From Anaerolineales bacterium (lineage in GTDB: Bacteria; Chloroflexota; Anaerolineae; Anaerolineales; RBG-16-64-43), in assembly GCA_049516595.1 (NCBI GenBank), contig JBEKSY010000011.1, positions 25,063-89,062 of the forward strand: 64,000 nt of DNA, written 5' to 3'. How positions within the stretch are numbered: the first letter of the stretch is position 1; each line of letters starts with the position of its first letter. Position numbers and translations under genes: made by a program. The notes beneath the pieces were generated by a model, which saw nothing but the letters and a program-made list of their open reading frames with translations, made no database searches and had not been told where the DNA came from. Below are positions 128 through 29,878 of this stretch, one piece after another.

Positions 128-904
128 TCATAGGTAGCCCAGGGTTTTCAGGGTCGGACCCGCGATCTCCAGGACCTGATCCGCTTCCTCCGCCGAGAGC
201 CCCATCTGGTATTTCCCGATGCTGGCCTCGTGCACGCGCTGGGTCGAGAAGCCGCGGGGGTCGACCCCCAGCCACTCCCCTAGGGCGCTCAGTTCCCGAT
301 CTGGGTTGCGCACCAAGTCCTCATAGCGGATGCAGTAGGCCTGCGCCCGGTGCCTCTCCATCGCCTGGATGGCCCGCACCCAATCCTGGGCCACCTGTGC
401 CGCCGTGTGGACATCCTTCCACAGCGGGCGATTCCGCCAGACGGTCCGCACTTGTTTCAGGGTCGAACTCACCACATCGCGAGCGTCGCGGTAGATGACC
501 AGGATCTGCAGGCCGGGCTCACGCGCGAGGTCATCGAGCCGGAAGATGTAACGGGGGTACTTGTCTCCCACAATCCGGGCTTGGGGAAAGATGGCATGCA
601 GGACGCGCTCGACCTCCCTCACCCCGATCGGGCCCCCCGCGTTCGGCAAGAGTCCCAGGAGATATTGGGCCAAGAAGGCTGCGCTCGGGAGCTTGGCACG
701 CAGGGGGACCTCGCGACCCGTCCGGCCCACATACGCGCGATAGTACCAGTTCTTGCGCAGGGCGCGCACGTGTTCCAGGTATCCGACATTAAGAGCTCTG
801 AAGTTCTGGAATTCGATGGTGACCTGGATCTCGGGATGCAGGTTGAACAGCTGGGCCAGGAGGGTCGTTCCCGAGCGGGCATGTCCCGCAATCACCAAAG
901 CCAT
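128..904 (-). CDS. P-loop (PAPS-dependent type) sulfotransferase, NodH/Stf0-like
   Basis: ORF 128..961. MALVIAGHARSGTTLL matches the 5'-phosphosulfate-binding P-loop of sulfotransferases. The ATG at 904 aligns with the start of the paralog MALLICGHQRSGTTIL, and the two proteins are collinear (…VIYRD.RDV.SST…RYEDLV..P). Confidence 0.8.
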   Translation of the reverse strand: MALVIAGHARSGTTLLAQLFNLHPEIQVTIEFQNFRALNVGYLEHVRALRKNWYYRAYVGRTGREVPLRAKLPSAAFLAQYLLGLLPNAGGPIGVREVERVLHAIFPQARIVGDKYPRYIFRLDDLAREPGLQILVIYRDARDVVSSTLKQVRTVWRNRPLWKDVHTAAQVAQDWVRAIQAMERHRAQAYCIRYEDLVRNPDRELSALGEWLGVDPRGFSTQRVHEASIGKYQMGLSAEEADQVLEIAGPTLKTLGYL

Positions 905-970
905 GCGCACCACTCCCACGCGGGGGGCACGATCCAGACAAAGGGCCCAGCTTCGCGCCACCCCGGCTGG

Positions 971-1756
971 CTACAGCCGATACCCAAACCGCTCCATGGT
1001 CGGGCCCGCCACCTCGATCACCGCCCGAAGCTCCTCAGGGGTTAACCCCTCCCGGTGCTTTCCGATCTTGTCCGCCTGCAGGTACCGCGACGGGAAGCCC
1101 TGGGGGTCCAGCCCCAGCCAGTCCCCAATCCCCTTCAGGACCGGACCGGGATCCTGGACCAGGTCTTCGTAGCGGACGACGTGGATCCGGTCGGCGAATT
1201 GGTCCATGATCTGCATGCCCTTCACCCAGCGGCGAGCCACCTTCTCGGGGGTGTCGAGCCCTTGCACGAAGCCCCGCGTGCGCCAAGTCGTGCGAGCCAT
1301 CCTCAGGGTGGAACTGGCGACGTCCCGGCAATCGCGGTAGATGACCAGGCACTGCGCTTGCGGGCTGGCCGTCAGCTCGGGCAGGTGGGAGAGGTAGTCG
1401 GGGAACTTGTCCCCCACCACCCTGGCCCGCGGGAAGAGGCACCGTAAGGCCCCTTCGATGGCGGCGACCGAGACTCGCTCTCTCCAGAAACGAGTGTAGG
1501 CGAGAAGGTAGCAGGGAACAAGAAGGTGATTGCGCAGGAAATTGAGCGGGCCCAGGGCCACGGGCACGAGTAGATTGTTGCGCCGACGGAGCAGCCACCA
1601 GCGACCCAGAATCCATCGCACGTAGACACGGTAGGAAAGGCCGAGCTGCCAAAAGTTGGCGAATTCCACCGTCAGGCGGATATCTGGATGGCGGCCGACC
1701 ACGTCGGCCAGGATCGTGGTTCCCGAACGTTGGTGCCCACAGATCAGAAGGGCCAT
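971..1756 (-). CDS. P-loop sulfotransferase, paralog of 128..904
   Basis: N-terminal MALLICGHQRSGTTIL, then VIYRDCRDVASSTL and RYEDLVQDP. The start lies 1 nt downstream of the ABC gene stop, consistent with one operon. Confidence 0.8.
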   Translation of the reverse strand: MALLICGHQRSGTTILADVVGRHPDIRLTVEFANFWQLGLSYRVYVRWILGRWWLLRRRNNLLVPVALGPLNFLRNHLLVPCYLLAYTRFWRERVSVAAIEGALRCLFPRARVVGDKFPDYLSHLPELTASPQAQCLVIYRDCRDVASSTLRMARTTWRTRGFVQGLDTPEKVARRWVKGMQIMDQFADRIHVVRYEDLVQDPGPVLKGIGDWLGLDPQGFPSRYLQADKIGKHREGLTPEELRAVIEVAGPTMERFGYRL

Positions 1757-1757
1757 G

Positions 1758-3590
1758 CTAAGCCTCGGTGGAGCCGGTGTCCATCAGCTGCTGGTGCAAG
1801 CGGAATAAGTTGGCATAGAGACCTCCGAGGGCGACCAGTTCCGCGTGGGTTCCGGTTTCGACAATCCGTCCGCTGTCAATCACCACGATGCGGCTGGCGA
1901 GCCGGACAGTGGAAAACCGGTGGGAAATGAGCACCGTCGTGCGCCCGCGGGCCAGCTCGCGGAACTGCGAGAATAGCTGGAACTCGGCCCGGGCGTCCAG
2001 ATTCGAAGTCGGTTCATCCAGGATGAGCACCCGGGCCTCGCGCGCGAAGGCGCGGGCCACCGCGATCTTCTGCCATTGCCCGCCTGAGAGGTCGACCTCC
2101 CCGAACATGCGGCCAATGAGGGTGTCGTAGCCCTGGGGGAGTCCCCTCGCCAACTCATCCAGCTGGGCCAGCCGCCCCAGCTCTTCCACTCGGCGCCGGT
2201 CGTCCAGCAAGCGGCGCCAATCCCCCAGGGCGATGTTCTCCCAGAGGGTCCCTTCATAACGGCCGAAGTTCTGAAATACACATGCGATCTCCCCGTGCAA
2301 GGCCTCCAGGGCGTACTCCCGCAGGTCGATCCCGTCCAGGGTGATGGTCCCTTGGTCGGGGTCGTAGAGCCGGGCAATCAGCTTGACCAAGGTGGTCTTC
2401 CCGGCTCCGTTCTCACCGACCACGGCCAGCGTCTCCCCGGGCCGGATCTCGAGTGTGATGTCGGACAAGGCCGGAACGCTGGTGCCGGGATAGGTGAAGG
2501 TCACGTGGTCGAGGGCCAAACCGCCGCGGAAGGTCTCCGGCCGCCGCTGGCCGTGATCGCGCACCTGGGGTTCCAGAGCCAGGAACTCGCGGAGATTGGA
2601 CACATACAGCGCTTGTTCCAGGATGGTGGCAAAGGCCCGGGTCGTGGAGTCGAGCGAGCTGCGCAGACGCGCCGCGCTGCCCCCGTAAATGGCTACGTCG
2701 CCGATCGTGAGTTGGCCCGCCACGGCGCGAATCACCACGTGCCCAAAGGCCACAAAGTAGGCTGCGGTCGAAAGGATGCCAAAGAGAAGGCCCCCGTTCA
2801 GCCCCCGCGCATAGAGCTTGCGGTCCTCCTCCTTGAAGGCCGTCATGAGCTTCCGGAAGCGCTGGATCAAGAGCGGAGCCAGATCCAGGATCTTGACCTC
2901 CGGGATGTACGCCTGACCGGTCAACCTCGTCACGAAGTAGCGGCTCCAGCGCCGCTTGGTCGTCCGCGAGTGCTCTTCGGCGAATCGCCGCCGGGCAAGT
3001 TGCCACTGGAACACCAGTTGGGGAGCGAAGATGGGCACAATCGCGAGGGTCAGGACGGGCTCGATGACGATCAGCACGGCGGAGAGGGAGGCCACCTGGG
3101 CCATGCCCGTGAGACCCGCCAGGACGGCGTTCACAAAGAGGGTGAAGTGCTGGGCCGTGTTCTCCTGCGCGCGGTCCATGATGTCCTGGATCGCCGGGTC
3201 CTCAAAGGCCGGGACGTCGAGCCGGGCCGCGTGTTCGAGAATGCGGTGGGTAATTCCCAGGTTGAGTTCGTCGAACAGGCGCTGCGAGAGGTACGCTTGC
3301 CACAGGCTGATCGCCACGTCCAAGAGCGCCAATCCGAGCGCCAGCAGGAGCCAGGGCAGGACCGCCGGGAGGGCGGCCCCCTTCCCGGTCAGGGCCTTGA
3401 GGGCCGCGTTGACGATTCCCCGAGCTGCAAGCGCCGCGCCGGCCGGCAGAAGGCTGTCGATCAAGGTGCTGCTCGCCAGCATCGCCGTTAGAGGGCGATG
3501 GGTGGCCCAGGTCAGCCGGAGCGCCCAGCGGGCGTTCTGCCAAAGCTTGCGTGGGCCAAAGTCAACAGCTGGATTGCTTTCCGTGGACAT
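1758..3590 (-). CDS. ABC transporter, fused permease/ATP-binding exporter (MsbA-like)
   Basis: N-terminal multi-TM half. Walker A GENGAGKTTLVKL, signature LSGGQWQKIAVARAF, Walker B VLILDEPTSNLD. ATG at 3590 is preceded by GGAGG/GAGGTGGG on the minus strand; the ORF track starts at a GTG at 3599. Confidence 0.9.
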   Translation of the reverse strand: MSTESNPAVDFGPRKLWQNARWALRLTWATHRPLTAMLASSTLIDSLLPAGAALAARGIVNAALKALTGKGAALPAVLPWLLLALGLALLDVAISLWQAYLSQRLFDELNLGITHRILEHAARLDVPAFEDPAIQDIMDRAQENTAQHFTLFVNAVLAGLTGMAQVASLSAVLIVIEPVLTLAIVPIFAPQLVFQWQLARRRFAEEHSRTTKRRWSRYFVTRLTGQAYIPEVKILDLAPLLIQRFRKLMTAFKEEDRKLYARGLNGGLLFGILSTAAYFVAFGHVVIRAVAGQLTIGDVAIYGGSAARLRSSLDSTTRAFATILEQALYVSNLREFLALEPQVRDHGQRRPETFRGGLALDHVTFTYPGTSVPALSDITLEIRPGETLAVVGENGAGKTTLVKLIARLYDPDQGTITLDGIDLREYALEALHGEIACVFQNFGRYEGTLWENIALGDWRRLLDDRRRVEELGRLAQLDELARGLPQGYDTLIGRMFGEVDLSGGQWQKIAVARAFAREARVLILDEPTSNLDARAEFQLFSQFRELARGRTTVLISHRFSTVRLASRIVVIDSGRIVETGTHAELVALGGLYANLFRLHQQLMDTGSTEA

Positions 3591-3647
3591 TGAACCCACC
3601 TCGTTCCTCCAGGGCGACCGCGTGCTTCGGCCCAGAGGAGCCTGGCC

Positions 3648-6497
3648 TCAGTTCCATTGCGTGACCCGACGGGCCACCTCCCCACTCAATTGCGCACTCG
3701 CCCGAAGCCATACCCCCCACCCGCGCGGTCGTGCCAGCTGCTTGAGGGCCGGGACCGCCAATTCGAGCAGGGATCTGCGCCAGCGCCTTTGCAGGGCCCG
3801 CGCTGCCAGGGCAAGGTACAGGCCCATCACCTCCATTCGCTCCTCGGAACCCACAACTCCCGCACGCAAGGCCTCCCCCCACAATTGATCCAGGTTCTCT
3901 TGCCGGACGGGTTGGCTGGACTCGAGAAGCGCGCCCTGGGTCCACTCGACCAGCTCCCGCGTGGTGAGGCGCGGGAAGTGGTTGAGGGCGTCCCGCCCCT
4001 CAGCCGTGTCTCCCTGCGCATACGGCTGCCAGACCTGAAGCCAGAAATCCAGCGCCCGCTCCGTCTCCTCCCAGGCGCCGGGTCCCATCTTGGAGGCGCG
4101 CCGGAAGACCGGCCAGAGGGCCCTCAGCCGGCCGAGCGGCACGCTCCCGCCCGGTTCGCGTCGGGCCCGTCCGGCAAGGTCGTTCAGCCATTCCAGAACA
4201 AGCGGTGTCCCCCAGAGGCGGGTGTATCCCTGAGTTCGCCCCAAGTAGGCGGCGGCCGCATCCGCCTGTCCGCTCTGGATCAGGTACCAGGAGATCCACA
4301 GCAGGGAAAAGAAGAACGCTCTCTTCTCCAGCCGGCGGATGCGCCGCGGCACGGGCTGCTCTCGGAAGAAGCGCAGGAGGGTGGCGTCTAGATCGCGGGC
4401 TTGGTGCAGGCTGTCGCGCGTGATGTTGGTAGCATGCATTCTCCGGCAGACCGTGACTGAGGGGATCCAATCGCCCCGGGATCCGAGGAGCGCCAGGCGA
4501 AGGAGCAGGTCCACATCCTCCGCTTGCACCAGCCGAGTGTCGAATCCTCCGCTGCGCTCCAGCCAATCCCGGCGGAACATCATGCCCCCCAGGAACACCG
4601 GCTTCCACATCAGCCAGCCCTCTAGGTCGAGCCGGGGAACTTCTTTCCAGGGAGTCTCGTCGGCGATCGCTTCCCCCCGGGTGCCGACGAGCCTCCAGCC
4701 GCTGTGAGAGAACCCGTGGGATCGGTGGGCAGCCAGTTGTCGCGCATGCGCGCGGAGCGTGCCTGGGAGCAGAAAATCGTCGGCATCCAGGAAAAGGATG
4801 AACTCCCCATGCGCGATCCCCAGCCCCCGGTTGCGCGCCGCGGCCGGGCCCTGGTGCGACTGGCGGACGTAGGTCAACTCCGGGGCCTGCGGCGTCAGCG
4901 CCTCGGCCGTCCCATCCGTGGACTCGTCGTCGACCACGATGATTTCCCGCTGCGGGTAATCCTGGGAAAGGATACTCTCCACCGCCTGGGCGACATAGGG
5001 CTGCTGGTTGTAGGCCGCAATGATCACGCTCACCAGACCGCTCTCGCACGGCGGCGGGCTCGCCGCTAAGGATCCCCTCACCGCCGGCGGATGGGCCGTT
5101 CGGCCGCCAGGCAGCCTCGTTCGGACCACCCAGCTGCGAGCCCCCGACCGCAGGAGACCCAGCCAGGCCCGCAGGCTGACCCGACTGAGGCCTTGGGCGA
5201 GGGCCTTCCCCAGCGCCGCCCAGGCTCGGCGCCTGTCCTGCACCTTGAGGCTGTCGGCCAACACGGCCAGGTACAGCGTCATGACCTCATGCCGCGCCGC
5301 CCCGCGCACGAGGCCGCGGCGCTCCAGTTCATCCCAAACGGCCCTCACGCTGCGCGCATCCACGGGACGGGGAGCGCCCACCAGGATGGGCACGGTGAGA
5401 TCGGTCAAGAGATGGCCGTCTTCCACGGGCTCCTTCATTAAAGAGCCGAGATCCCAAGGTTCTCCTTGGCTGCAGGGCCACCAGACTCGGCAAAACCAGT
5501 CATACTGGGTTTCAACCCGGTCCCACTGCTCGCGGGAGATCCCGGCCGCCTCGCGCAGGAGCAAGCGGGTTTCCTGGCTCTGTGAGGGTGGCACGTCCTG
5601 CCCCTGGCCCCAGGCGTGGAAGCGCATCATCCAGCGCAGCGCTGATTGCGGCGCGGGCCAGTCGGCCAGGGCCAGGGAAGCCCGGAGACGCGCCTCGGCC
5701 TGAGGGCGGTAGCCCGTTCGCCACAGGTGCCACGCCGCCCAGACCGTTGTGTCGTGGCGAACTCGCCGTTCCATCCGCTGCAGATTCCCGGGAAGCCCCG
5801 GAAGCGAAAAGAAACGATCCAAGACCAGATCCAGCGCCTCGGCCTGCACCACCCCCTGGCGCGTGAGGTTGTCGGCATGCAACCGACAGCAAAGCGTGGC
5901 CTCGCGCAGCCAGACCGACCGGCACCCCCGCCACGCCAGGCGCAGCATCAAATCGACATCCGCGGATTGGGGCAGCGTCTCGTCAAACCCGCCGGCACGC
6001 TCCAGCCAGCGCCTCTCCACCAGAGTAGCTCCCATACGGGCGGGCTTCCAGATCAGCCATCCCCTCAGGTCAAGCCGGGGCGCATCCTGCCAGGGCTCAA
6101 CTTGGCGCAGGAGAGTGCCGTCCGCCTGGACGAACCGCCATCCGCTGTGCACCAGGCCGGCCCTGGGGTTGGCGGCCAGGCGCTCCGCCAACCGCTCCAG
6201 GTGCTCGGGAAGATAGTAGTCGTCGGCATCCAGAAAGGCGATGAGCTCGCCCCGGGCCTGGGCGATCCCGCAGTTCCGGGCCGCCGACACCCCGCGGTGC
6301 GGCTCGGGAAAGTAGCGAATGCGCCCCAGAATGGGTTGCAGGACCTGGAAGGTGCCGTCGGTCGAGCCATCATCCACCACAATGATCTCCGCCGGAGGAT
6401 GGTGTTGCCTGAAGATGCTCTCCAGGGCCTCCCGGATGAAGCGGCCGCCATTGTAGGTGGCCATGACCACGCTGATCGGAGCATCGGCCCTGCTCAT
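3648..6497 (-). CDS. Tandem double glycosyltransferase family 2 protein (two GT2 + helical modules)
   Basis: Two GT2 cores. Module 1: ISVVMATYNGGRFI…IIVVDDGSTDGT…FLDADD. Module 2: VSVIIAAYNQQPYV…IIVVDDESTDGT…FLDADD. The modules stay collinear beyond the GT2 core (…HSGWR.V…PRLDL.GWL.WKP…W.ER.GGFD…DVDL.LRLA…). Confidence 0.85.
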   Translation of the reverse strand: MSRADAPISVVMATYNGGRFIREALESIFRQHHPPAEIIVVDDGSTDGTFQVLQPILGRIRYFPEPHRGVSAARNCGIAQARGELIAFLDADDYYLPEHLERLAERLAANPRAGLVHSGWRFVQADGTLLRQVEPWQDAPRLDLRGWLIWKPARMGATLVERRWLERAGGFDETLPQSADVDLMLRLAWRGCRSVWLREATLCCRLHADNLTRQGVVQAEALDLVLDRFFSLPGLPGNLQRMERRVRHDTTVWAAWHLWRTGYRPQAEARLRASLALADWPAPQSALRWMMRFHAWGQGQDVPPSQSQETRLLLREAAGISREQWDRVETQYDWFCRVWWPCSQGEPWDLGSLMKEPVEDGHLLTDLTVPILVGAPRPVDARSVRAVWDELERRGLVRGAARHEVMTLYLAVLADSLKVQDRRRAWAALGKALAQGLSRVSLRAWLGLLRSGARSWVVRTRLPGGRTAHPPAVRGSLAASPPPCESGLVSVIIAAYNQQPYVAQAVESILSQDYPQREIIVVDDESTDGTAEALTPQAPELTYVRQSHQGPAAARNRGLGIAHGEFILFLDADDFLLPGTLRAHARQLAAHRSHGFSHSGWRLVGTRGEAIADETPWKEVPRLDLEGWLMWKPVFLGGMMFRRDWLERSGGFDTRLVQAEDVDLLLRLALLGSRGDWIPSVTVCRRMHATNITRDSLHQARDLDATLLRFFREQPVPRRIRRLEKRAFFFSLLWISWYLIQSGQADAAAAYLGRTQGYTRLWGTPLVLEWLNDLAGRARREPGGSVPLGRLRALWPVFRRASKMGPGAWEETERALDFWLQVWQPYAQGDTAEGRDALNHFPRLTTRELVEWTQGALLESSQPVRQENLDQLWGEALRAGVVGSEERMEVMGLYLALAARALQRRWRRSLLELAVPALKQLARPRGWGVWLRASAQLSGEVARRVTQWN

Positions 6498-6575
6498 CGC
6501 TGGCGCCTCCGAATCCCGACCCCGGCCCTCACGCCATCCTCCTCCCCAAGCCGCTGAGCCACAAGGACCCCCCGG

Positions 6576-7454
6576 TCAAGCACCGCCGCGCATCCGTTCA
6601 TAGCGCGAGCCGATGAAGTGCGCGCCCTGGGAGAGGGCCAGGAGGGCCCACATCGCGAGCGGCGCCCTGTCCTCTTGCAACTGCCTGGCCAGCGCAAGAT
6701 GAAACTGCGGCCGTCTTCGCTGGCCAATCCACCGAGGCAGGCGGTTTCGGAGCAGCGCGCGCCGGAAGCCGTCATCCCCTCGGCCGTAGCGGAACTGGAG
6801 CCGGACGTACTGCCAGGCGGTGAGGGCGTGGTCGTGCCACACGCGAGCTTCCGGCTGATAGCCCTGCCGGAAGCCGCGCGCCAGAAGCCGATGACCCAGC
6901 TCGCGGTCCTCGGCGCCCGGCCACCGAAAGGAGCGGTCATACCCCCCCAGACTCTCAAAGACCTCTCGCTTGTAGGCGGCGTTGTTGCTGCAGGCCAGAT
7001 AGACATCCCCGTTGGGGAAGCGCGAGTAGTTTTGGAGGAAGTCAATCAGATACTCATGGCTTCTCGCCGGCACGCGTCTCGGCCAGGGGTTGAGGCTCCG
7101 GCCGGCCAACGCGTCCCAAGAACCCTCCGCGAAGGCCTCCGCAAAGCGGCCCAGCCAATCCGGGAAGGGCCGACAGTCGTCGTCCGTGAAGGCCAGATGG
7201 GTGCCGTGCGCCTCGCGGGCCCCTGCATTGCGCGCGGCGGCGGGGCCCTGATGCGGGATGTCCAGGGCGCGCATGGGTAGGACCCCCTGCAACTCGGAGG
7301 GCAGATCCGCCCAGGGGGCGCGGCCTCCATCGTTGACCACCAGCAGCTCCCACCCCCCCGGCGGGTCAGTAAGGCCGCACAGGCTGACCAAGCAGGCCCG
7401 CAACTGCTGCGGGCGGTTATAGGTGGGGATCACGACGCTAAACGAGAGGGGCAT
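6576..7454 (-). CDS. Glycosyltransferase family 2
   Basis: FSVVIPTYNRPQQL, LLVVNDGG and a FTDDDC (DxD) motif. ATG at 7454 lies 4 nt after the GT4 stop; the ORF track uses a TTG at 7478. Confidence 0.85.
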   Translation of the reverse strand: MPLSFSVVIPTYNRPQQLRACLVSLCGLTDPPGGWELLVVNDGGRAPWADLPSELQGVLPMRALDIPHQGPAAARNAGAREAHGTHLAFTDDDCRPFPDWLGRFAEAFAEGSWDALAGRSLNPWPRRVPARSHEYLIDFLQNYSRFPNGDVYLACSNNAAYKREVFESLGGYDRSFRWPGAEDRELGHRLLARGFRQGYQPEARVWHDHALTAWQYVRLQFRYGRGDDGFRRALLRNRLPRWIGQRRRPQFHLALARQLQEDRAPLAMWALLALSQGAHFIGSRYERMRGGA

Positions 7455-7458
7455 AGGC

Positions 7459-8595
7459 TTATCGCGCCTCTCGAGCAACCGCGATGGCCTGGCGGAAGCG
7501 CTCCGCCACGGCGTGCGCGTCGAACCGGTCCGCCAAGGCCTGGCCTTGGGCCGCGAACGAGCCGCGCAGATCCGGGTCGCGCAGAAGCGCGAGGATCTTC
7601 CCGGCCATTTCCTCCGTCCGCTCCGGGTTCACGACGAACCCGTCCTTTCCCTCGGTGACGTAATCGCACACGCCCGCGTATTGCGAGCACACCACCGGGA
7701 GGCCGCTCGTCCACGCTTCCACCACCACCACCCCGAAGGTGTCCTCCAGGGAGGGAAGGGCGAGGACATCGGCGTCCGCGAAGACGCGCGGCAAGCTGCC
7801 CGGCTCCACAAAGCCGAGGAACTCCACGCGGTCGCGGTAACCTCCGCGTGAGGCTTGTGACTCCAGCTGAGGCCGTAGCGGTCCCGACCCGGCCAGGATC
7901 AGGCGGGCCTGGGGCATCTCGCCGGCCACCCGAGCGAAGGCCTCCAGCAGAAGTGCCACCCCCTTCCGATCGCTGAGGCTGCCGACATACAGCAGGGTGG
8001 GCGGACGCGGCCGAAGCTGGCCGCGAGCGCGTTCCACCCTCTCCCGAAAGAGGCGCACGTCGTGGCTCTGAGGCGCCTCGTAGATGCGATCCGGCCGCGC
8101 CCCAAGGGCTTGCAGGTTGGCGCAGGCAGCGCGGCTGGTGCCCAGGTAGGCACTGGCTCGAGGCACGATGATCCGGCGGGTCAGCCTCTGCCCCCGGGTG
8201 AGCCCGCGGTCGCTGTGCGCGGTGCACTCGCTCCACGCGACGTATCCGCATCGGCGCAGGCGCGAGTACAGCAGGGCCGTCAGGGCCGGGAGGGAGTACT
8301 CATATCCGATGACCACTTCGGGCGACAGGCGCAAGAGGTGCGGGAGGAGCGTTGGGTTCACGTAGAGCGTGCGCCATTCGCGGTAGCGCGGCTTGGGCAG
8401 CCGGAAGAAGAATCCGGGCAATACCGTATGCGGGAAGGGGAGAACGTGACCGGAGAGGTCCCAGGCGCGGTCCCAGCCTCGCCGGGCCGAGTAAAGGATA
8501 TGCAGGTCAATCCCCTCCAGAGAGCTGAGGGCCGCAAAGAGCGGGATGCGATAGGGGACGATCTCGTTGTTGAGGATAACGACCCGGCATCTCAT
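7459..8595 (-). CDS. Glycosyltransferase family 4 (GT-B, Glycos_transf_1)
   Basis: C-terminal LPSLEDTFGVVVVEAWTSGLPVVCSQ…GFVVNPE (EX7E-type motif). The ATG at 8595 (MRCRVVILNNEI…) is an internal start within ORF 7459..8769. Confidence 0.85.
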   Translation of the reverse strand: MRCRVVILNNEIVPYRIPLFAALSSLEGIDLHILYSARRGWDRAWDLSGHVLPFPHTVLPGFFFRLPKPRYREWRTLYVNPTLLPHLLRLSPEVVIGYEYSLPALTALLYSRLRRCGYVAWSECTAHSDRGLTRGQRLTRRIIVPRASAYLGTSRAACANLQALGARPDRIYEAPQSHDVRLFRERVERARGQLRPRPPTLLYVGSLSDRKGVALLLEAFARVAGEMPQARLILAGSGPLRPQLESQASRGGYRDRVEFLGFVEPGSLPRVFADADVLALPSLEDTFGVVVVEAWTSGLPVVCSQYAGVCDYVTEGKDGFVVNPERTEEMAGKILALLRDPDLRGSFAAQGQALADRFDAHAVAERFRQAIAVAREAR

Positions 8596-8918
8596 GGCCA
8601 ATCCAGGCGAACCTCGATCTCGGCATGAGCGGAAGCCGTCCGAGACCGGGCCGTTCAATATGGAATCGCGAAGAGGGGGGTAGCCAAGCCGATTATACAG
8701 GGTTCCCCATCCGCCACGCTCCTCCGAAGACCTACCATGGCCGCAGGTCTCGACGGCCTCAGAGGGCAACCCTCAGGACAGCTGATGCTACCGTCGCGTG
8801 GCAGAAGAGGCCGGTCCGATCGTGCGCCCAGGCCGGAAGGCCCGATCCTGCCAAGCGGGCGCCTCTCCCTGCGGGTCCCTTCTCCCCTTGGGGCTCGCCG
8901 CGCCCTTGCCGGCCCTCT

Positions 8919-9420
8919 TCATTCTTGGGTGTTCTCCTCCCGGTCTTCACGCACGAACCCGCGCGGCCGCACGAGGCTCAGGATCGGCCGGGCGGATTGC
9001 TCGGGAGAGGTTTGAACGGTGTCGCGCGCGATCTCTGGAGACCCGGGCGGCTCAATGGGATCATCGATCCCCGTGAACCTCGTAATCTCCCCGCGCCGTG
9101 CCTTGGCGTACATCTCCTGGGTGTCGCGCGTTCCCAGGACCAAGGAGGCCGTGGCCTCGTGGTCCCATCCGCAGATCTCCTCCAACCGCAGGATCGCCAG
9201 CGGCTCGTTCTTCGAATTGCGCAGCGCAATCTCCGCGCCCAGGCCAGAATCAGGGCCCCCCCAGTCCCCAGAGCCGACTGGACAGAGGTTGCCTGATCAT
9301 ACCGGATCGCCCCTTTCCTCGAAAAGGAGGAAGGATGCCGTGCTGAGGGGCGGCGAGAATTGCACGTTCCAGCCACGAACTCCCATCCGGCCAAGCCCGG
9401 CGGGGAAGTCTCGAAAGCAA
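8919..9420 (-). pseudogene. Remnant of a second sulfate adenylyltransferase/APS kinase gene (internal in-frame deletion plus in-frame stop)
   Basis: The translation …[38 protein letters not shown]|[30 protein letters not shown]… joins the N-terminal and C-terminal ends of the intact protein at 10674..12422. There is an in-frame TGA at 9297..9299. DNA similarity to 10790-10894 and 12009-12140 is visible. The upstream boundary is approximate. Confidence 0.7.
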
Positions 9421-9899
9421 GCAGCATGTGCAGGCGGGAACTCCGCTCCTTCTCCGGGGCCGTCTGAAAGGGGGCTGGGCCGAGTCGGTCCTCGGCTGCC
9501 GCGGAGAAGGTGCAGGCCGGGGCAATCGCCGCCGGCGCCGACCCCGGCTTGGCCTATGAGCCCGGCTCCGTCCGGCGCCCGGCGGTTACGGCTCTGCGAG
9601 GCTGGGGGTGCGCGGTCTGCGGAAGGCCGAACCCTTACACCGGGGAACCATTTTTGAGGGAAGGGGGATAGCTGCCCACTCGGCGGAACCGGCCAGGCGA
9701 CGGAAGCCGCTTCAGGAGCAGGAGCCGGGCAGAGTTGGGCCAAGCCCGCGCCCGCCTTACTCGGGCTCACCACGATGGCACTCGCTCTTGGTTCGTGCAG
9801 CAGGGCCCCCGCGCTCGTTCCCGCCGTGAGCCCGGCGGTCCCGGCCACCCTTCCCGCAAGCGCAAGGGTGTGGACGGTGCCGTCCAGATCCGCGCCTCC

Positions 9900-10595
9900 C
9901 TACGAACTCTCCGACATTGCCAGGCGCAGGGCCTCTCTCCATGGAGGCAGCCTTACGCCAAAGGCTTCCTCCGCTCGCTGGCAGTCCAGCACCGAATAGG
10001 CGGGCCTTTCGGCCGGGGTCGGGAAGTCGCTGTGCCGCGCGGGCTGGATCTCGCGCACGCGATGCTCCTGCGCCCGCGGATCGCAGCCCAGGATCTCGCG
10101 GGCCCACCCCAGCCGGCCGTCCACGAGCGGCCAGTCGATTCCCAGCCGCGGGTCATTCCAGAGCAGTGTCCGTTCGGAGGCCGGGTCATAGATCTCGGTC
10201 ACTTTGTACAGCACGTCAGCGAACTCGCTGAGGACGTAGAACCCGTGGGCGAAACCCGGTGGAACCCACACCTGGCGCCGGTTGTCATCCGATAGGGGCG
10301 CACCGGCCCAGCAACCGAAGGCCGCGGAACTTCGTCGCAGGTCGACCGCCACGTCGAATACCTCGCCCCGCACCACTCGCACCAGCTTCCCCTGCGGGTG
10401 GCGAATCTGGTAGTGCAACCCGCGCAGCACGCCCTGGCGTGATCCGGAATGGTTGTCCTGAACAAAGGTCGCCGGCACGCCGAGCGCCGCGAACCGCGCG
10501 GCGTTGTAGGTTTCCAAGAAGAAGCCGCGCTCGTCCTCGTGCACGTCGGGATCAAGCAGCAAGACCCCCGGCAACTCCGTGGGCTGGATCTTCAC
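9900..10595 (-). CDS. rmlC: dTDP-4-dehydrorhamnose 3,5-epimerase fused in frame to the C-terminal ~70 aa of dTDP-4-dehydrorhamnose reductase
   Basis: RmlC core: ERGFFLETY…RGLHYQ…VPPGFAHGF…DPRLGIDWPL. The tail GWAREIL…FPTPAERPAYSVLDCQRAEEAFGVRLPPWREAL is the conserved RmlD C-terminus. No Rossmann N-terminus of RmlD is present. Confidence 0.8.
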   Translation of the reverse strand: MKIQPTELPGVLLLDPDVHEDERGFFLETYNAARFAALGVPATFVQDNHSGSRQGVLRGLHYQIRHPQGKLVRVVRGEVFDVAVDLRRSSAAFGCWAGAPLSDDNRRQVWVPPGFAHGFYVLSEFADVLYKVTEIYDPASERTLLWNDPRLGIDWPLVDGRLGWAREILGCDPRAQEHRVREIQPARHSDFPTPAERPAYSVLDCQRAEEAFGVRLPPWREALRLAMSESS

Positions 10596-10673
10596 CGCGG
10601 CATCCCTCCCTCGGGAAATGCCTCATCGGCCACCGCCCGCTTTGCTGTCCGGACCGGCGCCTTTTGCGCCGGA

Positions 10674-12545
<1,872 letters not shown>

Positions 12546-13235: not shown

Positions 13236-15188
13236 TTACCTTCGTTTGAAGACCGTGACACCCCCATCGGAAGCCACCTCCTGGAATTCTGGGTCCTCTG
13301 TCGTCATCGTGAATTCTGGCTTGCCCTTCACAGCAATCACATACTCGACCCCGCTGTGATCTAGATCCTCTTGCCATTCGTGCGGATCCGAGGCGCGAAA
13401 TGCGACCACACGATTCCTGAGGTCCGCGCCGTACAAAGGGTATATGAATCGCACCAGTCCTCCATAGGCGATCGTAGCGGGGCTTACGCTAGTTTCCTTC
13501 TCAAGGTACAGAAACGCTTTCCGCCCGACCCAAACAAAATCGGCGCTGGATCGACTTCGATCGTCTCGCCAGGCTACATAATCCCTGAGTACTCTGGGGG
13601 TGACTTGGGCGAGATCCATCGTGAGGAACACCGAGAGGGCCGCCATCGCCAACAATAGGATCGTGGTGGCATGTCGGGCAAAAGGCCGCAGGCGATCTAG
13701 TAGCCAGCCGATGGCCAGTGCCCCGAGCAGAAGGACCGGGACGCTGTACCTGGGCACCCAGAATGCCGGCGTGGCCAGGAGAGCGAGAAAGGTCAGAACA
13801 CATAGCAGCAACTGCAACCATTGGCGACGCAGGATAATGGAAACGAGCCATGCCGCCAAAGCGGGTACGCCCAGGATAATCCAAAGGGGGCCGAGACCAG
13901 CCAGGAATTCGTCCTCAAGGCTTCCCGTCTTCTCCAGCCAGGTCGTCGCCAAGCGCTCTGGGATGGGCATAGCCAGCAGCTGGGGAGAGGAATTATTCGC
14001 GATGAATTGATCCAGGCCCGTCTGCCCCTGGAAAACCACGTGACCGAGCAATGACACCTCATACGGCGCAATTGGATTTCGAAACACATACAGGTTGCGC
14101 AAGTAGGGATACGCGCCCAGGGCGATTACGGCGACCAGCGCCGGGCCGACGACCCGGGGTGCCCCCCAGGCCCACCCCCTCCCCCCGGCGGAGGCAACCG
14201 TCCCCTTCAAGCTGCCGAGCCACCATCCCAGGAGAAGCAACCCGAGCGCCAGAGAATAGAAGAGGCCGGTATATTTGGCCCCCGCCAGGATACCCGCCGC
14301 GAGGCCGACCTCGAGGCCAACGATCGCAGGCTTGGCCTTGACATCGAAAGCATGCGACGCTCCAAAGAGCAGGTACACGCCCATTGCAAAAATCGAGGCC
14401 ATAAAGGCGTCAACATGGGAACTGACTTGTTGGAGGACCATGGTCGGCGCAAAGGCAAAGATACAAGCACCCGCAAGGGCGGCATCTCGACTTGCTCCCC
14501 ACCGGCGGGACAATCCATATACGGCAAGCGCCCCAGTCACAATCGCCGGCAGCGAGGGGATGTCGACCAACTTGTCGACGCCCAGGAAGAGCAAGTTCCA
14601 AAGCGACAGCAACTCGACATTGAATGGATAGGCCCGTACCCATATCACGAGGCTCGAAAACGGCCGGATGGCATGGGCCTGGTAGATTTCGGCCATGATC
14701 GGCAAATGGAAGACCAGAGCATCCCACTCCCGGGGTGCCAAGAAGAAACCCTCGAAGGCACTTCTAAGTAGCACCAGAAGGTAGAGTCCCAAGACCGCCC
14801 TGCCGAAAAGCGAAAGCCTAATGGTCCTCACCTGCGAGAGCAGTTGGCGCTGTGCCTCGATCACCCGACCCCATTTGGGCACCACGCGGGTCAACAAAAC
14901 GATGCCGGTCGCTACCAGGTTAACTCCAATCACGACGGGCGCGTAAAGCAGCCCGATCAGGCCGAGGCCGAGTTCGCTGAGAATGATTTGCGCAATCGTC
15001 ATTAGCATGGAGGCCACCATGGCATATGGCGCAGAGCGGCAGAATCCACAGAGCGCCAGGTACCAGGCAGCCCATATCAAGCCTGTGATCGCGACCAGGG
15101 CGGCCATGCCCAACCACGTGTTCAGGCCGCTCCCCAACAATCCACCATGACGAATTGCACTGAGCATTCCAAGCAGCCACTGTTGCAT
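13236..15188 (-). CDS. Polytopic membrane protein, GT-C-like (ArnT/PMT/O-antigen-polymerase-like); function uncertain
   Basis: 650 aa with many hydrophobic spans and a soluble C-terminal domain of about 130 aa. The loop motif REWDALVFHLP resembles GT-C first-loop acidic motifs. Family assignment is by eye only. Confidence 0.5.
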   Translation of the reverse strand: MQQWLLGMLSAIRHGGLLGSGLNTWLGMAALVAITGLIWAAWYLALCGFCRSAPYAMVASMLMTIAQIILSELGLGLIGLLYAPVVIGVNLVATGIVLLTRVVPKWGRVIEAQRQLLSQVRTIRLSLFGRAVLGLYLLVLLRSAFEGFFLAPREWDALVFHLPIMAEIYQAHAIRPFSSLVIWVRAYPFNVELLSLWNLLFLGVDKLVDIPSLPAIVTGALAVYGLSRRWGASRDAALAGACIFAFAPTMVLQQVSSHVDAFMASIFAMGVYLLFGASHAFDVKAKPAIVGLEVGLAAGILAGAKYTGLFYSLALGLLLLGWWLGSLKGTVASAGGRGWAWGAPRVVGPALVAVIALGAYPYLRNLYVFRNPIAPYEVSLLGHVVFQGQTGLDQFIANNSSPQLLAMPIPERLATTWLEKTGSLEDEFLAGLGPLWIILGVPALAAWLVSIILRRQWLQLLLCVLTFLALLATPAFWVPRYSVPVLLLGALAIGWLLDRLRPFARHATTILLLAMAALSVFLTMDLAQVTPRVLRDYVAWRDDRSRSSADFVWVGRKAFLYLEKETSVSPATIAYGGLVRFIYPLYGADLRNRVVAFRASDPHEWQEDLDHSGVEYVIAVKGKPEFTMTTEDPEFQEVASDGGVTVFKRR

Positions 15189-18337: not shown

Positions 18338-20938
18338 ATGACCCATCCTCAGCCGACCAACGAATTCATCCCCTTCGGCCGCGAGTGGATCGATCGGTCC
18401 ATCAAGGACCGGTTTGAACATGTCGTGCGTTCCTATCCCCAAAACGTTGCCCTGCTGGAGGGAGGGCGCGCAATTACCTATGAGGAACTCAACGGCCAAG
18501 CCAATCGCCTGGCCCACGCTCTCCTCGATCGCCTCGGGGATGGCGAGGTGGCCGTGTCGGTCCTTCTTGGACACGGCTCAGCAGCCATCCTTGCGCTCCT
18601 GGGAGTCCTAAAGGCAGGCAAGGTCTGTGTTCCCATGGATCCCTCCCTGCCGCAATCGCGAGCGGCCCAGATTGCACAGGACGCCGAAGCCGCGATGTTC
18701 ATCACGCGGGCGGACTATCGGTCGCAGGCCTTGGCCCTGTGTCGGGGAGAGGAGCTCATTGAGGTGGATCGTTTGCCTGGGGGGCTCTCCGAGCGGAATC
18801 CCCAACTCGATATCCCACCGGAACGGATCGCCTACGTGCTCTACACCTCGGGGTCCTCAGGGGGGCCCAAGGGGGTGATGTTTAGCCAGCGCACGCTTTT
18901 GCACCCCGTCCTCGTGCAAACCAACAGCCTTCACTCGAATTCCACCGACCGATTCTCCTTGTTGACCTCGGTGGGGGTGGGGATGGCGGTTATACATCTC
19001 TACGGCTCGATCTTGAACGGGGGAACGCTTTGTCCTTTTGTGGTTGCGGGTGGCGGGCTCTTGGAGATGATTGACTGGATGCGGGAGCAGAAAATCAGCG
19101 TCCTGCAATCGACGCCCTCGCTTTTCAGGCGGTTGGCTGCGGAGCCGAACAGCGAAGCCGGCTTTGCTTCGCTTCGTTTGTTGAAGCTCAGTGGCGAGAT
19201 GGTCCTGCGGTCGGATTTTGACCTCTACCGACGTACCTGTCCTCCGGATTGCCTGCTGCGGGTTGGCTACTCAACGACGGAAGCAGGCGTCGTCACGGAG
19301 GATCTCCTCGACCGCAATTCGCAGGTGCTCGCGGAGCAACTCCCGGCCGGCTACCCCGTCTCGGACGTGGAGATCCGACTGTGCAACGAGGTCGGGGAAC
19401 CTGTGGCAGAGGGGGAGGGGGAGATTGTGGTGAGGAGCCGTTATGTCTCTCCGGGGTATTGGAGGCGCCCCGATCTCACCCAGGCCGCTTTCTCGGAGGA
19501 TCCCTCGGGCAAGGGCAGGCGGTCCTTTCGGACAGGGGATCAAGGGCACCTCTTGGGGGATGGGTGCCTGGTGTTGCGTGGCCGAAAGGACAGCCAGGTG
19601 AAGGTCAGAGGGTACCGGGTTGAGCTTTCGGAGGTTGAGCAGGCGCTCCTGCGGATGAAGGGCATCCAGGAAGCAGCCGCGGGGACCTGGGAGCGAAACC
19701 TGGGAGAAGAGGTCCTGGTGGCCTATGTGGTAGCGGGGGCTCAACCGCCCCCTCGCCCTGCCGAGCTGCGCTCCGCGCTGAGGCAGTCGCTGCCCGACGC
19801 CATGATCCCCTCGGCCTTTGTGTTCCTGGAATCCATGCCCCTCACCGAAAGTGGGAAGATCGATCGACAAGCGCTGCCCGCGCCTTTGCCTGCGCCGGCG
19901 CATTTCGACGGGCAGCCGCCGAACAGCCTGCTTGAGGCGCAGCTTTGCCATATCTGGGAGGAAGTCCTTGGAGTTCGGCCGGTGGGTATCCAGGATGACT
20001 TCTTCGACCTAGGGGGCACGTCTTTGCAGGCCCTGCAGCTCTTTGAGAGGATCCGACAGCAGCTTGGGCAAAGAATCCCTCTGGAGGTAATCCTCCGGGC
20101 CTCGACGGTGGAACAACAGGCAGAGGTCCTTTTGGCCCCGGGGGGAACCGACCTGCCCGCCACCCTGGTGCCCCTGCAGCCCGCCGGCTCCCGGCCTCCG
20201 TTTTTCTTCATCCATCCAGCGAGGGGCCATGTGCTCTGCTATCGCCTCCTGGCCCACTGGCTCTCCGCCGATCAGCCGGTGTATGGCATCCAGGCGCAAG
20301 GGGTCCGTCCCGAACAGAAGCCTCATACGTCCATCGAGGACATCGCAGCGGGTCATCTCAACTCCGTGCGCAACTTCCAGCCCAAGGGCCCCTACTTTCT
20401 GGGAGGTTATTCCCTTGGCGGAGTGATCGCCTTTGAGATGGCGCGGCAGCTGGCCGCGCAGGGAGAGCAGGTCGCCCTGCTCGCCCTGCTGGACACGCCG
20501 TGCCCGGCCCGCAAGATCAGAAGGCGCACGCTGCGGCAACGCTTGCAACGGCGCGCCGCGCAACTCAGGCGCAGGACGCTCCGGGGGAAAGCCGCCTTCT
20601 TGTGGGGCTTACTGAGGAGGTCGCTGCCCGCACACCTGTGGCACCTCGAAGAGGTACATTGGGCCGCCGCTCAGCGCTATCGGCCGGGCCCCTATGCGGG
20701 CAAGGTGCTCCTCCTTCGGGCGCAGGGGCGGCGGGACCACATTGATGGGGATCCGAGCCTGGGGTGGAGCGAATGGGTGACGGGGCCGTTGGAAGTTGCG
20801 GAGGTCCCTGGCAATCACATCAGCCTCTTGCAGGAACCCAACGTGCGCAGGCTGGCGGAGGTCCTGCGCCATCACCTGGCCGAGACCTTGGAGAAAGAAC
20901 AAGGTCCATCCGGTCACGACCGGCGACCCGCTGGGTGA
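18338..20938 (+). CDS. NRPS-like adenylation-thiolation-thioesterase (A-T-TE) enzyme
   Basis: A-domain cores: LKAGKVCVPMDP (A2), YTSGSSGGPKGV (A3), YSTTEAG (A5), FRTGD (A7), GRKDSQVKVRGYRVELSEVE (A8), SGKIDR (A10). PCP DDFFDLGGTSLQALQL. TE GYSLGG plus a C-terminal His. ATG at 18338. Confidence 0.9.
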   Translation: MTHPQPTNEFIPFGREWIDRSIKDRFEHVVRSYPQNVALLEGGRAITYEELNGQANRLAHALLDRLGDGEVAVSVLLGHGSAAILALLGVLKAGKVCVPMDPSLPQSRAAQIAQDAEAAMFITRADYRSQALALCRGEELIEVDRLPGGLSERNPQLDIPPERIAYVLYTSGSSGGPKGVMFSQRTLLHPVLVQTNSLHSNSTDRFSLLTSVGVGMAVIHLYGSILNGGTLCPFVVAGGGLLEMIDWMREQKISVLQSTPSLFRRLAAEPNSEAGFASLRLLKLSGEMVLRSDFDLYRRTCPPDCLLRVGYSTTEAGVVTEDLLDRNSQVLAEQLPAGYPVSDVEIRLCNEVGEPVAEGEGEIVVRSRYVSPGYWRRPDLTQAAFSEDPSGKGRRSFRTGDQGHLLGDGCLVLRGRKDSQVKVRGYRVELSEVEQALLRMKGIQEAAAGTWERNLGEEVLVAYVVAGAQPPPRPAELRSALRQSLPDAMIPSAFVFLESMPLTESGKIDRQALPAPLPAPAHFDGQPPNSLLEAQLCHIWEEVLGVRPVGIQDDFFDLGGTSLQALQLFERIRQQLGQRIPLEVILRASTVEQQAEVLLAPGGTDLPATLVPLQPAGSRPPFFFIHPARGHVLCYRLLAHWLSADQPVYGIQAQGVRPEQKPHTSIEDIAAGHLNSVRNFQPKGPYFLGGYSLGGVIAFEMARQLAAQGEQVALLALLDTPCPARKIRRRTLRQRLQRRAAQLRRRTLRGKAAFLWGLLRRSLPAHLWHLEEVHWAAAQRYRPGPYAGKVLLLRAQGRRDHIDGDPSLGWSEWVTGPLEVAEVPGNHISLLQEPNVRRLAEVLRHHLAETLEKEQGPSGHDRRPAG

Positions 20939-21620: not shown

Positions 21621-22371
21621 GTGAAGGTTCTCCATGGGTCCCTCGAATCGATTCCAGACCTGAGGGACTCGGGGATCCACGTTTGGAAAGCTGGGCTGGA
21701 CCGCCAGTATGCTGCCGAGTGGGGAGAGGAAATCCTCTCGCCCGAGGAGATCGAGCGGGCGGGCCGCTTCCGGTTCGGGGCGGATCGACTGCGCTTTCTC
21801 ACCGGCCGGATCGTCCTGCGCCTGTTGTCGGCGGCCTACACAGGAGTTTGCCCGCGAGAGCTGATCCTTGAACCGGACGAGACGGGTAAGTTGCGCCTGG
21901 GCAATCGAGAGAACGCCGGGATCGTTCAGTTTAACCATTCCCATTCCGGGGAAGTGATCCTGCTGGCCTTCTCCAGGGGGCGGCGGGTGGGGGTTGATGT
22001 GGAGTGCCTGGGGCGGGGCGTCCCCTACGAGGAAGTACTCGGCCCCCTGCTCTCACCCGGCGAGCGCCAATAGATTCAGTCCTCTCCACCCGAGTTCGTC
22101 CCGGTAGCCCTGCTGAGGATTTGGATTCGGAAAGAGGCCTACCTCAAGGCCCAAGGAACGGGGCTCAGGGCCGTGCTGGAATCCGTACCCGGGCTGCCGA
22201 TCGGAGAGGGCCGTGCTCGCAGGCCCAGGGGGTGGAAGGACCTGGAAGATCTTCGACCTCGCTCTCGGTCCTGATTGCCTGGGGGCGCTGGCAGCCGAGG
22301 GGAGGAATTGGCGGGCCCGGTGTTGGGAATGGTCGCTGGACTTGGCCGCGAGAATCGGCGGTCTTGAGTAA
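21621..22371 (+). pseudogene. Sfp-type 4'-phosphopantetheinyl transferase, disrupted (in-frame TAG plus +1 frame change)
   Basis: Frame 0 reads …FNHSHSGEVILLAFSRGRRVGVDVE…LSPGERQ, then TAG at 22071..22073, then IQSSPPEFVPVALLRIWIRKEAYLKAQGTGL (the W/KEA motif). The C-terminus WKIFDLALGPDCLGALAAEG continues in another frame after about 22200-22212, ending at the TAA at 22369..22371. The start (GTG 21621) is uncertain. Confidence 0.7.
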
Positions 22372-29023: not shown

Positions 29024-29041
29024 GGTAGTGGGTCAGTTTGA
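29024..29041. repeat. Left terminal inverted repeat core of the IS1-like element
   Basis: Exact reverse complement of 32273..32290. Confidence 0.85.
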
Positions 29042-29878
29042 CTTTTCTAGATTTACGATCTCCTCCAATGTCCACGGCCTAGCGGCCAAGCCCGCGGCCA
29101 TCGCCGGGGTGGTGATGCGGCCCTTGATCGCTTTGGTCAAGCTCTGGTGCGGGCGGGCGAAGTTGGAGTGCATGAAGTGGGGCGCAACGGCGGGAGTCAG
29201 GTTCTCGACCTTCTTCGAGAACCCGTTGGTGAGCCGAGTGAGGCGCCGCATGCTCATTCGCATCGTGAGGTTTTGGCGTTCCACGAAGCGGGTTGAGATA
29301 TGGGCTGGGTCGGGGTTGCCCTGGACAACTTCGGTCCTGGTCCCAATGCACTTTGCTGGACTGTAGTGCCTCTGGCCTTCGTCTGATGCTCCGTATAGCT
29401 TCTGAAGCATGGCGTAGTCAATCTCCGACCCAAATGCCTCTTTCACTGCATCAAGATAGGCAAAGTGGCTGTCTGTGGTCAGTTGCACCCGGTTTGAAAG
29501 CCGCCCCGCAAGATCGTCAATGAACGCCCAAGCCGTGTCCCTGTCCCGGTCGCCGATCATGAAGGAAAGGGGCAACTTCGTCTCCGCGTCAAGGGCTGTC
29601 CAGGTCCAAACGTCGCCATATCCGAACACGCCCTGCTTCTCAGGGGGAAGATTCTTCTGCTTGGCATAGCAGAATGACCAAATCTCGTCGCACGGAACGC
29701 GCTTGCAGGCGGGGTCTCTGATCGCCCGGCCTTGGTACTCCGCGCAACCTTCCCCCACGCGAACCAGCAGGCCGACAACGGTATTCTTCGACGCCCCGGT
29801 TATCCGCCTGGTTGCCCGGATGCTGTTTCCCTCGACCAGACACCCAATGACATTAGCGCGCTCGCTCAGCCTATTCAT
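29033..29878 (-). CDS. IS1-family transposase (single-ORF, HTH + DDE)
   Basis: DEIWSFCYAKQKN…DVWTWTALD…LTTDSHFAYL…TRFVERQNLTMRMSMRRLTRLTNGFSKKVENL parallels IS1 InsB (DE.W…TD…Y…IER.NL.LR…RL.R…FSKS.E.H). Confidence 0.85.
   Translation of the reverse strand: MNRLSERANVIGCLVEGNSIRATRRITGASKNTVVGLLVRVGEGCAEYQGRAIRDPACKRVPCDEIWSFCYAKQKNLPPEKQGVFGYGDVWTWTALDAETKLPLSFMIGDRDRDTAWAFIDDLAGRLSNRVQLTTDSHFAYLDAVKEAFGSEIDYAMLQKLYGASDEGQRHYSPAKCIGTRTEVVQGNPDPAHISTRFVERQNLTMRMSMRRLTRLTNGFSKKVENLTPAVAPHFMHSNFARPHQSLTKAIKGRITTPAMAAGLAARPWTLEEIVNLEKSN

Follow-up and report, generated by a model that had tools for sequence, protein, structure and literature searches.

In a 64,000-nt stretch of the genome of an Anaerolineales bacterium (assembly GCA_049516595.1, contig JBEKSY010000011.1, positions 25,063-89,062 of the forward strand), a complete gene was identified for a stand-alone protein made of an adenylation (A), a thiolation (T) and a thioesterase (TE) domain. 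The whole stretch is called the window here, and coordinates are counted from its first letter. The A domain was of nonribosomal peptide synthetase (NRPS) type, and Asp235 of the standard numbering was absent from it and replaced by Gly215. This is the residue which an initial annotation of the gene had taken as the anchor of the alpha-amino group of the substrate, and whose role is described in PMC11355689 and PMC10949194. To judge from the domains, the pocket and the relatives, the gene probably encodes an autonomous module without condensation (C) domain, which would activate an acid lacking an alpha-amino group, tether it to the carrier domain and release it through the TE. The alignments and a tree place the protein in a large, uncharacterised, multi-phylum clade of A domains without Asp235.

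Domains and specificity code of the A-T-TE protein

The gene and the residues on which the argument depends were located as follows.

18338..20938 (+): complete A-T-TE gene, ATG start, TGA stop, 866 aa
18413..19858 (+): adenylation domain, N-terminal core aa 26-375 and C-terminal subdomain aa 432-507
18980..18994 (+): codons of Gly215, Met216 and Ile219, equivalent to Stachelhaus positions 235, 236 and 239 (from the alignments and the model)
19856-19858 (+): codon of the A10 Lys507 (motif SGKIDR)
19940..20128 (+): thiolation (carrier) domain, aa 535-597, Pfam PP-binding PF00550, 5.6e-15
20021-20023 (+): codon of the phosphopantetheine-attachment Ser562 (GGTSL), invariant across the family alignment
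20198..20869 (+): type I thioesterase domain, aa 621-844, Pfam Thioesterase PF00975, 1.2e-30
20411-20413, 20492-20494 and 20816-20818 (+): codons of the TE triad Ser692 (GYSLGG), Asp719 and His827

The A domain was covered by the Pfam families AMP-binding (PF00501, aa 26-375, 1.7e-55) and AMP-binding_C (PF13193, aa 432-507, 2.6e-12), and no Condensation domain was found in the protein by the Pfam search. The core motifs A3 (YTSGSSGGPKG), A7 (FRTGD), A8 (GRKDSQVKVRGYRVE) and A10 (SGK507IDR) of NRPS-type A domains, which belong to the ANL superfamily, were all found. Both the stand-alone A-T-TE layout without C domain and the A-domain motifs including the A10 Lys, as first annotated, were therefore borne out by the Pfam matches, the located motifs and the intact catalytic residues. 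In this domain order, with carrier Ser and complete TE triad, the protein agrees with the non-reducing NRPS-like enzymes. The longest possible version of the open reading frame (ORF) would begin at an alternative GTG start at 18254.

The best NCBIfam matches were models of NRPS amino-acid A domains and modules. The EntF model could be aligned over residues 31-845, and the alignment with EntF reached the C-terminus. The amino acid adenylation domain model TIGR01733 gave 298.4 bits, below its curated cut-off of 317.4, and this near miss would fit a divergent subfamily. An AlphaFold2 model made from 46 family members had a mean pLDDT (predicted local distance difference test) of 86.7, and in a structure search its fold matched EntF, LgrA and GrsA. 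The protein kept 131 of the 135 highly conserved columns of the family; since it deviated at just four of them, against a family median of about five, there was no sign of decay in the ORF.

The specificity code was read with GrsA as the reference (1amu_A, residues 189-526, in which the chain index equals the standard numbering) from MAFFT alignments that included 120 or 276 homologues. It was G-M-I-Q-K-S-G-(G/V)-V-K, against DAWTIAAICK in GrsA, with positions 330 and 331 ambiguous owing to a family-wide deletion of one residue after the A5 TE motif. Known codes, for example DILQLGMIWK of glycine modules, were recovered by the same alignment as a control. In HMMER pairwise alignments with both A domains of LgrA the same Gly stood opposite the Asp, and the distance from the DR residues to position 235 was 11 residues in both proteins (D204-R205 to G215 here, D224-R225 to D235 in GrsA). 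D204 is the sole acidic residue in 201-232, and neither Asp nor Glu occurs in 206-232, so no plausible shift of the alignment could yield an Asp235. In the AlphaFold2 model a strand (205-208) is followed by a helix which begins exactly at residue 215; in 1AMU, Asp235 stands at the N-terminus of its helix, which is the same place. The absence of Asp235 and its replacement by Gly215 were thus confirmed. The earlier by-eye placement of Gly, Met and Ile at positions 235, 236 and 239 was upheld by MAFFT, by HMMER against LgrA and by the DR spacing; the formal code on GrsA numbering likewise gave Gly at 235, and the structural placement put no Asp there. The Lys at position 517 was retained as Lys507.

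A clade of adenylation domains without Asp235

About 100 stand-alone A-T-TE proteins, 850-960 aa long and 37-52% identical, were retrieved in a protein search; they came from metagenome-assembled genomes (MAGs) of Chloroflexota, cyanobacteria, Aminicenantes, Methanotrichaceae, Nitrosotalea and others. A genome scan added relatives from Acidobacteriota, Deltaproteobacteria, Verrucomicrobiota and more, with a best match of 41% identity; the source species is absent from the GTDB representative set. The scans of genomes and of metagenome contigs used a 7-sequence alignment, and most of their matches were ordinary C-A-T-TE termination modules with Asp235, which were kept as controls. Among the top 120 homologues, position 235 was Ser in 31, Gly in 27 and Ala in 25; nine carried Asp235, and eight of these nine had a C domain.

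A neighbour-joining tree built from 276 A domains, which is a simple distance tree with no bootstrap support, placed the protein inside a clade of 143-155 sequences. Asp235 was missing in 138 of 155 clade members (90%) and retained in 115 of the 121 sequences outside the clade. Stand-alone A-T-TE size together with an N-terminal A domain was found in 116 members, which are spread over Chloroflexota, Acidobacteriota, cyanobacteria, archaea and further groups, and the A domain described here, beginning at residue 26, is N-terminal as well. The members keeping Asp235 were a C-A-T-TE group with the code DAMHVGGTVK. In addition, the clade-type A domain also opens multimodular NRPSs as an A-T loading module (A-T-C-A...).

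Among the 138 members without Asp235, position 299 was basic in 70 (Arg in 42, Lys in 28), position 278 was His in 41, positions 301, 322 and 330 were mostly Gly, and Lys517 was present in all 138. The protein in the window shares G235, G322 and G/V330 with the clade and has S301 where most members have Gly. By these residue counts the composition of the pocket in the clade is not random. No characterised bacterial member of the clade was found in the literature, where only the fungal quinone synthetases, RalA/EchA, PacP, LgnA and FrsA were met.

Proposed activity, genomic context and rival explanations

In the proposed reaction, the A domain would use ATP to adenylate a carboxylic acid carrying no alpha-amino group, for which Lys507, the equivalent of the carboxylate- and ATP-binding Lys517, is kept. 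Acidic residues are absent from the pocket (G-M-I-Q-K-S-G-G/V-V), which contains several small residues and Lys at position 299, so that an oxygenated or anionic acid would be favoured over an amino acid. The acyl group would then pass to the phosphopantetheine arm at Ser562, and the Ser692-Asp719-His827 triad of the TE would accept it and release the product. Most likely, water or an acceptor nucleophile would take over the acyl group on release, while a Claisen or Dieckmann dimerisation of the quinone-synthetase kind would be less likely. Starter acids without an amino group enter NRPSs at N-terminal loading modules. The proposal of the initial annotation that an alpha-amino acid is probably not the substrate still holds because of the lost Asp235, the polar, basic and Gly-rich pocket and the use of this domain type in starter modules; it is strengthened by the loss of Asp235 across the clade together with this loading-module use. 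It is the substrate class, the release mode and the activity in vivo that we infer here.

The genomic context was compared between 25-27 independent stand-alone loci and 125 canonical loci. Recurrent neighbours of the stand-alone loci were 4'-phosphopantetheinyl transferases (PPTases) and the genes of an ATP-binding cassette (ABC) importer with an SsuA-family substrate-binding protein (SBP), and URO-D was observed in two loci. Since canonical NRPSs are accompanied by PPTases as well, PPTase neighbours were uninformative. The SsuA-family (sulfonate-type) importer genes stood beside 7 of the 25 stand-alone loci and beside 0 of the 125 canonical ones (Fisher p = 1.6e-6); an eighth locus (L177) has a matching permease upstream, which brings the count to 8/27. 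The importer consists of binding-protein, ATPase and permease genes, on the same strand and directly upstream of the A-T-TE gene, and no other biosynthetic enzyme was present in the importer-linked compact operons that were seen. It was found in five of the nine other members of the subclade to which the protein in the window belongs. Within this subclade, Wzy-type polysaccharide or sulfotransferase genes were nearby instead of an importer in the window and at the loci of P0003 and P0099. Importer neighbours thus recur in the clade (about 30% of members) and do not define it.

The importer and sulfotransferase links suggest a sulfur-oxyanion-related chemistry. This is given low weight, as there is no importer at the locus in the window and no covariation between the importer and a basic residue at 299. 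The idea that the basic residue reflects a sulfonate delivered by the importer was rejected, the importer-linked members being mostly without it. Matches to the NCBIfam "Sao" transporter were weak and refer to an unrelated selenoprotein-linked system. Organic-acid neighbours (HMGL-like, isopropylmalate dehydrogenase, aldehyde dehydrogenase and methylmalonyl-CoA mutase) were each seen once and are anecdotal. No riboswitch was found by an Rfam search upstream of the importer/A-T-TE operons or across the window.

Some other arrangements were observed around related genes. In a peat metagenome (L004:6499-7695) and in a Vicinamibacterales MAG (L016:9321-10373), at loci unrelated to each other, a URO-D-family gene occurs with an A-T-TE and PPTase pair. 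In L018:5745-7931, a pyridoxal phosphate-dependent (PALP) gene and an HMGL-like gene of the alkylmalate-synthase/aldolase family lie directly upstream of a stand-alone A-T-TE gene with 4-bp spacings, which looks like an operon making its own acid substrate. A link to the priming glycosyltransferase Bac_transf in 14 loci was set aside, since it belongs to C-A-T-TE modules with codes for Gly or other codes containing Asp235. Such modules lie 1-3 kb from Bac_transf genes in Acidobacteriaceae/Verrucomicrobiia (L040, L042, L051, L067) and in Nostoc (L024, L035, L047, L075, L077, L085); some are single modules of about 1360-1390 aa, and others end proteins of about 2000 aa. Their codes were DILQLGMIWK or DILQLGLVWK (glycine), DVWHFSLIDK and DVRHFALLAK. 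These loci are conserved across phyla, and the modules appear to be NRPS modules within polysaccharide loci.

Several points weigh against the activation of a non-amino acid by this protein. The clade has no characterised member, and the substrate class is read from one missing residue and the composition of the pocket. Some keto-acid domains, such as HcaB, retain Asp235 (PMC10949194), so Asp235 is not a perfect predictor in either direction. Lys or Arg at position 299 does not track the importer, the residue there being A, N, T, I or M in members with importer genes, and the idea of an anionic substrate is weak for this reason. The locus in the window has no importer, with no SBP homologue anywhere in the 64 kb. 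The partner PPTase gene is a pseudogene, and the A-T-TE protein may stay in the apo form. A TE merely hydrolysing an unmodified acyl thioester would run a futile cycle; an acceptor or a self-condensation step would have to exist.

The pseudogene raises the question of whether the whole cassette is being lost.

21648..22371 (+): Sfp-type 4'-phosphopantetheinyl transferase gene, disrupted, 53% identity to L001:10968-11735

L001:10968-11735 is the intact PPTase gene which follows the closest homologue, P0003. The copy in the window has an in-frame TAG at 22071-22073, where TGG was changed to TAG and a conserved Trp was lost, and a +1 frameshift near 22200-22215. Of the 39 genes in the window, 13 end with TAG, which is a regular stop codon there. 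With the adjacent PPTase broken, priming of the carrier domain would depend on a different PPTase. It could be argued that the A-T-TE gene is a non-functional or decaying remnant, still intact only through recent inactivation. Besides the two PPTase lesions, this could draw on the remnants nearby (the C-terminus of RmlD fused to RmlC, an orphan adenosine 5'-phosphosulfate (APS) kinase fragment and an IS1 fragment), and on the fact that relatives with UvrB 92-96% identical are known while the search yielded no A-T-TE orthologue above 52% and below 100% identity. The 866-codon ORF, however, is open, with all catalytic residues present and fewer deviating conserved columns than the family median; bacteria commonly hold more than one PPTase, and the PPTase lesions could be assembly errors. 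Decay is therefore considered unlikely. As for the remnants themselves, an isolated C-terminal APS-kinase fragment and an RmlC fused in frame to the last ~65 residues of RmlD were observed at 8919-9185 and 9900-10595 (both -), and they suggest deletions or erosion, possibly assembly artefacts. The IS1-like transposase fragment (29033-29878, -) is followed by an HTH/IrrE-like gene; around it, from 28 to 32 kb, the G+C content is lower (~56-62%), and a mobile element may have left a scar here.

UvrB, COX1, PolX and MoaA mark the region as chromosomal, and the UvrB, 77% identical to that of Anaerolineales MAGs, points to a member of the Chloroflexota near Anaerolineales. The surroundings of the gene gave rise to another reading.

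128..12536 (-): sulfated-polysaccharide-type cluster with two sulfotransferases, an ABC exporter, GT2/GT4 glycosyltransferases, RmlC, ATP sulfurylase/APS kinase and remnants
128-1756 and 10674-12536 (-): paralogous sulfotransferases, 41% identical to each other
13236-15188 (-): 650-aa polytopic membrane protein without Pfam match, between the gene for synthesis of 3'-phosphoadenosine 5'-phosphosulfate (PAPS) and the SLT gene

With three glycosyltransferases and an ATP sulfurylase fused to an APS kinase among its genes, the cluster probably makes a sulfated exopolysaccharide. The 650-aa membrane protein resembles glycosyltransferases of the GT-C/ArnT type by eye. An SLT/TPR transglycosylase gene lies upstream of the A-T-TE gene on the opposite strand, and no consensus promoter was found between the two. 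Group II intron RNA domains were also observed at 36511-37072 (+) (Rfam RF02001 with 108 bits, RF01998 and RF00029), followed by an ORF at 37245-38150.

Any functional link of this cluster to the A-T-TE gene is putative. By analogy with the transesterifying TEs of FrsA and Sln9 or with the logic of D-alanylation (Dlt), the protein might be an acyl donor in trans, the TE of which would move an organic acid onto a hydroxyl or amine of a cell-surface glycan, namely the sulfated polysaccharide of the neighbouring cluster, or of another acceptor. The gene adjoins a cluster with two sulfotransferases, an exporter, glycosyltransferases, RmlC and PAPS synthesis, and the SLT transglycosylase gene. P0003 (52% identity, with a PPTase after it) is flanked by two Wzy_C genes, WecG, Bac_transf and GT1; Wzy_C and a sulfotransferase lie directly upstream of P0099, a sulfotransferase is upstream of P0033, and P0031 comes after Wzm/Wzt genes. 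The TE of a single-module NRPS has also been shown to perform intermolecular transesterification (PMC7794379). On the other hand, the divergent SLT gene and about 5.8 kb separate the A-T-TE gene from the cluster, polysaccharide genes are common in bacteria, and most stand-alone loci are without them. The Bac_transf association belongs to the Asp235-bearing C-A-T-TE modules and not to this clade, and the TE domain carries neither signal peptide nor membrane anchor, though glycan decoration is often extracellular. Transfer to a glycan is thus held to be doubtful.

The initial annotation had also pointed to the aryl alpha-keto-acid-dimerising synthetases, TdiA, atromentin synthetase (AtrA) and RalA, in which two arylpyruvates are loaded and joined by the TE to a quinone or furanone. 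These enzymes, together with EchA, have the same A-T-TE order, no C domain and no Asp235. Once a PPTase has primed them they are self-sufficient (PMC9047271, PMC10316625), and the protein in the window likewise appears autonomous, with a PPTase as its sole need; its Lys at code position 5 could in principle bind a ring substituent, this being the position that tunes recognition of the para-substituent in quinone synthetases, with Asn for 4-hydroxyphenylpyruvate (PMC10316625). The sequence comparison with this family was made with RalA. The ralfuranone cluster of Ralstonia GMI1000 is RSp1419-1434 (PMC4989320), and a 937-aa A-T-TE ORF at the expected place of the megaplasmid (L168:23455-26268) is RalA. 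It was 27% identical to the protein overall and 25% (67 bits) in the A domain; among the comparators it ranked 289/289 in the A domain, 289/289 in the T domain and 235/267 in the TE, where only the first ~112 residues could be aligned and the C-terminal half could not. The A domain of RalA matched best with models of fatty-acyl-AMP/CoA ligases, whereas the one in the window matched best with NRPS amino-acid models and is of canonical NRPS type.

Quinone synthetases have Val at code position 1, which marks alpha-keto-acid activation (PMC10316625), and Gly stands there in the present code. With Q, K and S the pocket is polar and not hydrophobic, and no aminotransferase gene, the partner in those systems, is present within 10 kb of the A-T-TE gene. 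The TE had 39-42% identity to the TEs of canonical C-A-T-TE modules and was as close to them as to the TEs of its own clade. Since it is equally close to peptide-releasing modules, the shared layout is no evidence of kinship, and the A-T-TE order is a convergent architecture rather than a sign of family membership. The proposed kinship was consequently not sustained by the comparison with RalA and by the code, and dimerisation of aryl keto acids is considered very unlikely.

It is highly improbable that the domain still activates an amino acid, which might be beta-, gamma- or N-blocked, or have its alpha-amino group held by backbone carbonyls. The nearest clade relatives with Asp235, the C-A-T-TE group with DAMHVGGTVK, are 39-42% identical, and the overall best profile matches are amino-acid-activating NRPS modules. 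However, neither the 10-residue code nor residues 206-232 contain an acidic residue, domains of beta-alanine type move the Asp to position 236 (VDxVVSLxDK, L039 and L093) where Met is found here, and a Lys in the pocket would repel an ammonium group.

For the module activating an acid without an alpha-amino group, a wider role can be put forward tentatively. It is possible that an A-T-TE family spread across many phyla has given up amino-acid recognition and become coupled to sulfonate/taurine importers and, in the subclade of the protein in the window, to sulfotransferase or polysaccharide genes. By way of a carrier-protein thioester, such enzymes would either activate an organic acid that is imported or bears a sulfur oxyanion, or join an acid to a sulfonate amine brought in by the importer. 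If so, this would be an unrecognised route to a new class of products, for example acyl-sulfonates, oligo-esters or acylated sulfated glycans. Stand-alone A-T-TE genes are labelled "NRPS-like" by genome-mining tools and are among the commonest unexplained biosynthetic genes of uncultured soil and sediment bacteria. The clade is coherent, lacks Asp235 and is separate from the quinone and furanone synthetases, and the statistical link to importers gives a handle on the substrate through the binding proteins. Should the chemistry be new, NRPS enzymology would gain a new starter-unit or off-loading logic, and hundreds of genomes could be annotated better. The value lies mainly at the level of the family, in the importer link and the conserved unusual pocket, and less at this locus with its broken PPTase partner, where the lesson is the modest one of an intact gene beside a broken partner.

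Comparison with known systems

To our knowledge, the synthesis of quinones and furanones is the only characterised chemistry of A-T-TE proteins. The A-T-TE parts of EntF, SrfA-C, AB3403 and ObiF1 were the best matches in the PDB (Foldseek 8e-68 to 2e-57, about 860 aligned columns), and canonical termination modules matched with HMMER E-values of 1e-79 to 1e-97. Unlike these modules, the protein in the window has no C domain, Gly in place of Asp235, and the A5 motif GYSTTE instead of NxYGPTE; it would act alone, whereas canonical termination modules end an assembly line.

The keto-acid A domains of StsA type are likewise of NRPS type with Asp235 replaced (PMC10949194, PMC11355689). They belong to A-KR-T modules, with a ketoreductase (KR) domain, which are followed by C domains, and neither KR nor C is present here. 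They usually have an aliphatic residue at position 235, with the remaining code mimicking that of the cognate amino acid, in contrast to the Gly235 and the polar and basic pocket of the present domain.

FrsA and Sln9 are monomodular as well, and their TE performs intermolecular acyl transfer (PMC7794379), while PacP is an A-T-TE tridomain protein acting in trans (PMC8748450). FrsA differs in having a C domain and in activating leucine. All three are embedded in large biosynthetic gene clusters, and the gene in the window is not. The TE of PacP is without a catalytic triad, whereas the triad of the A-T-TE protein described here is intact.

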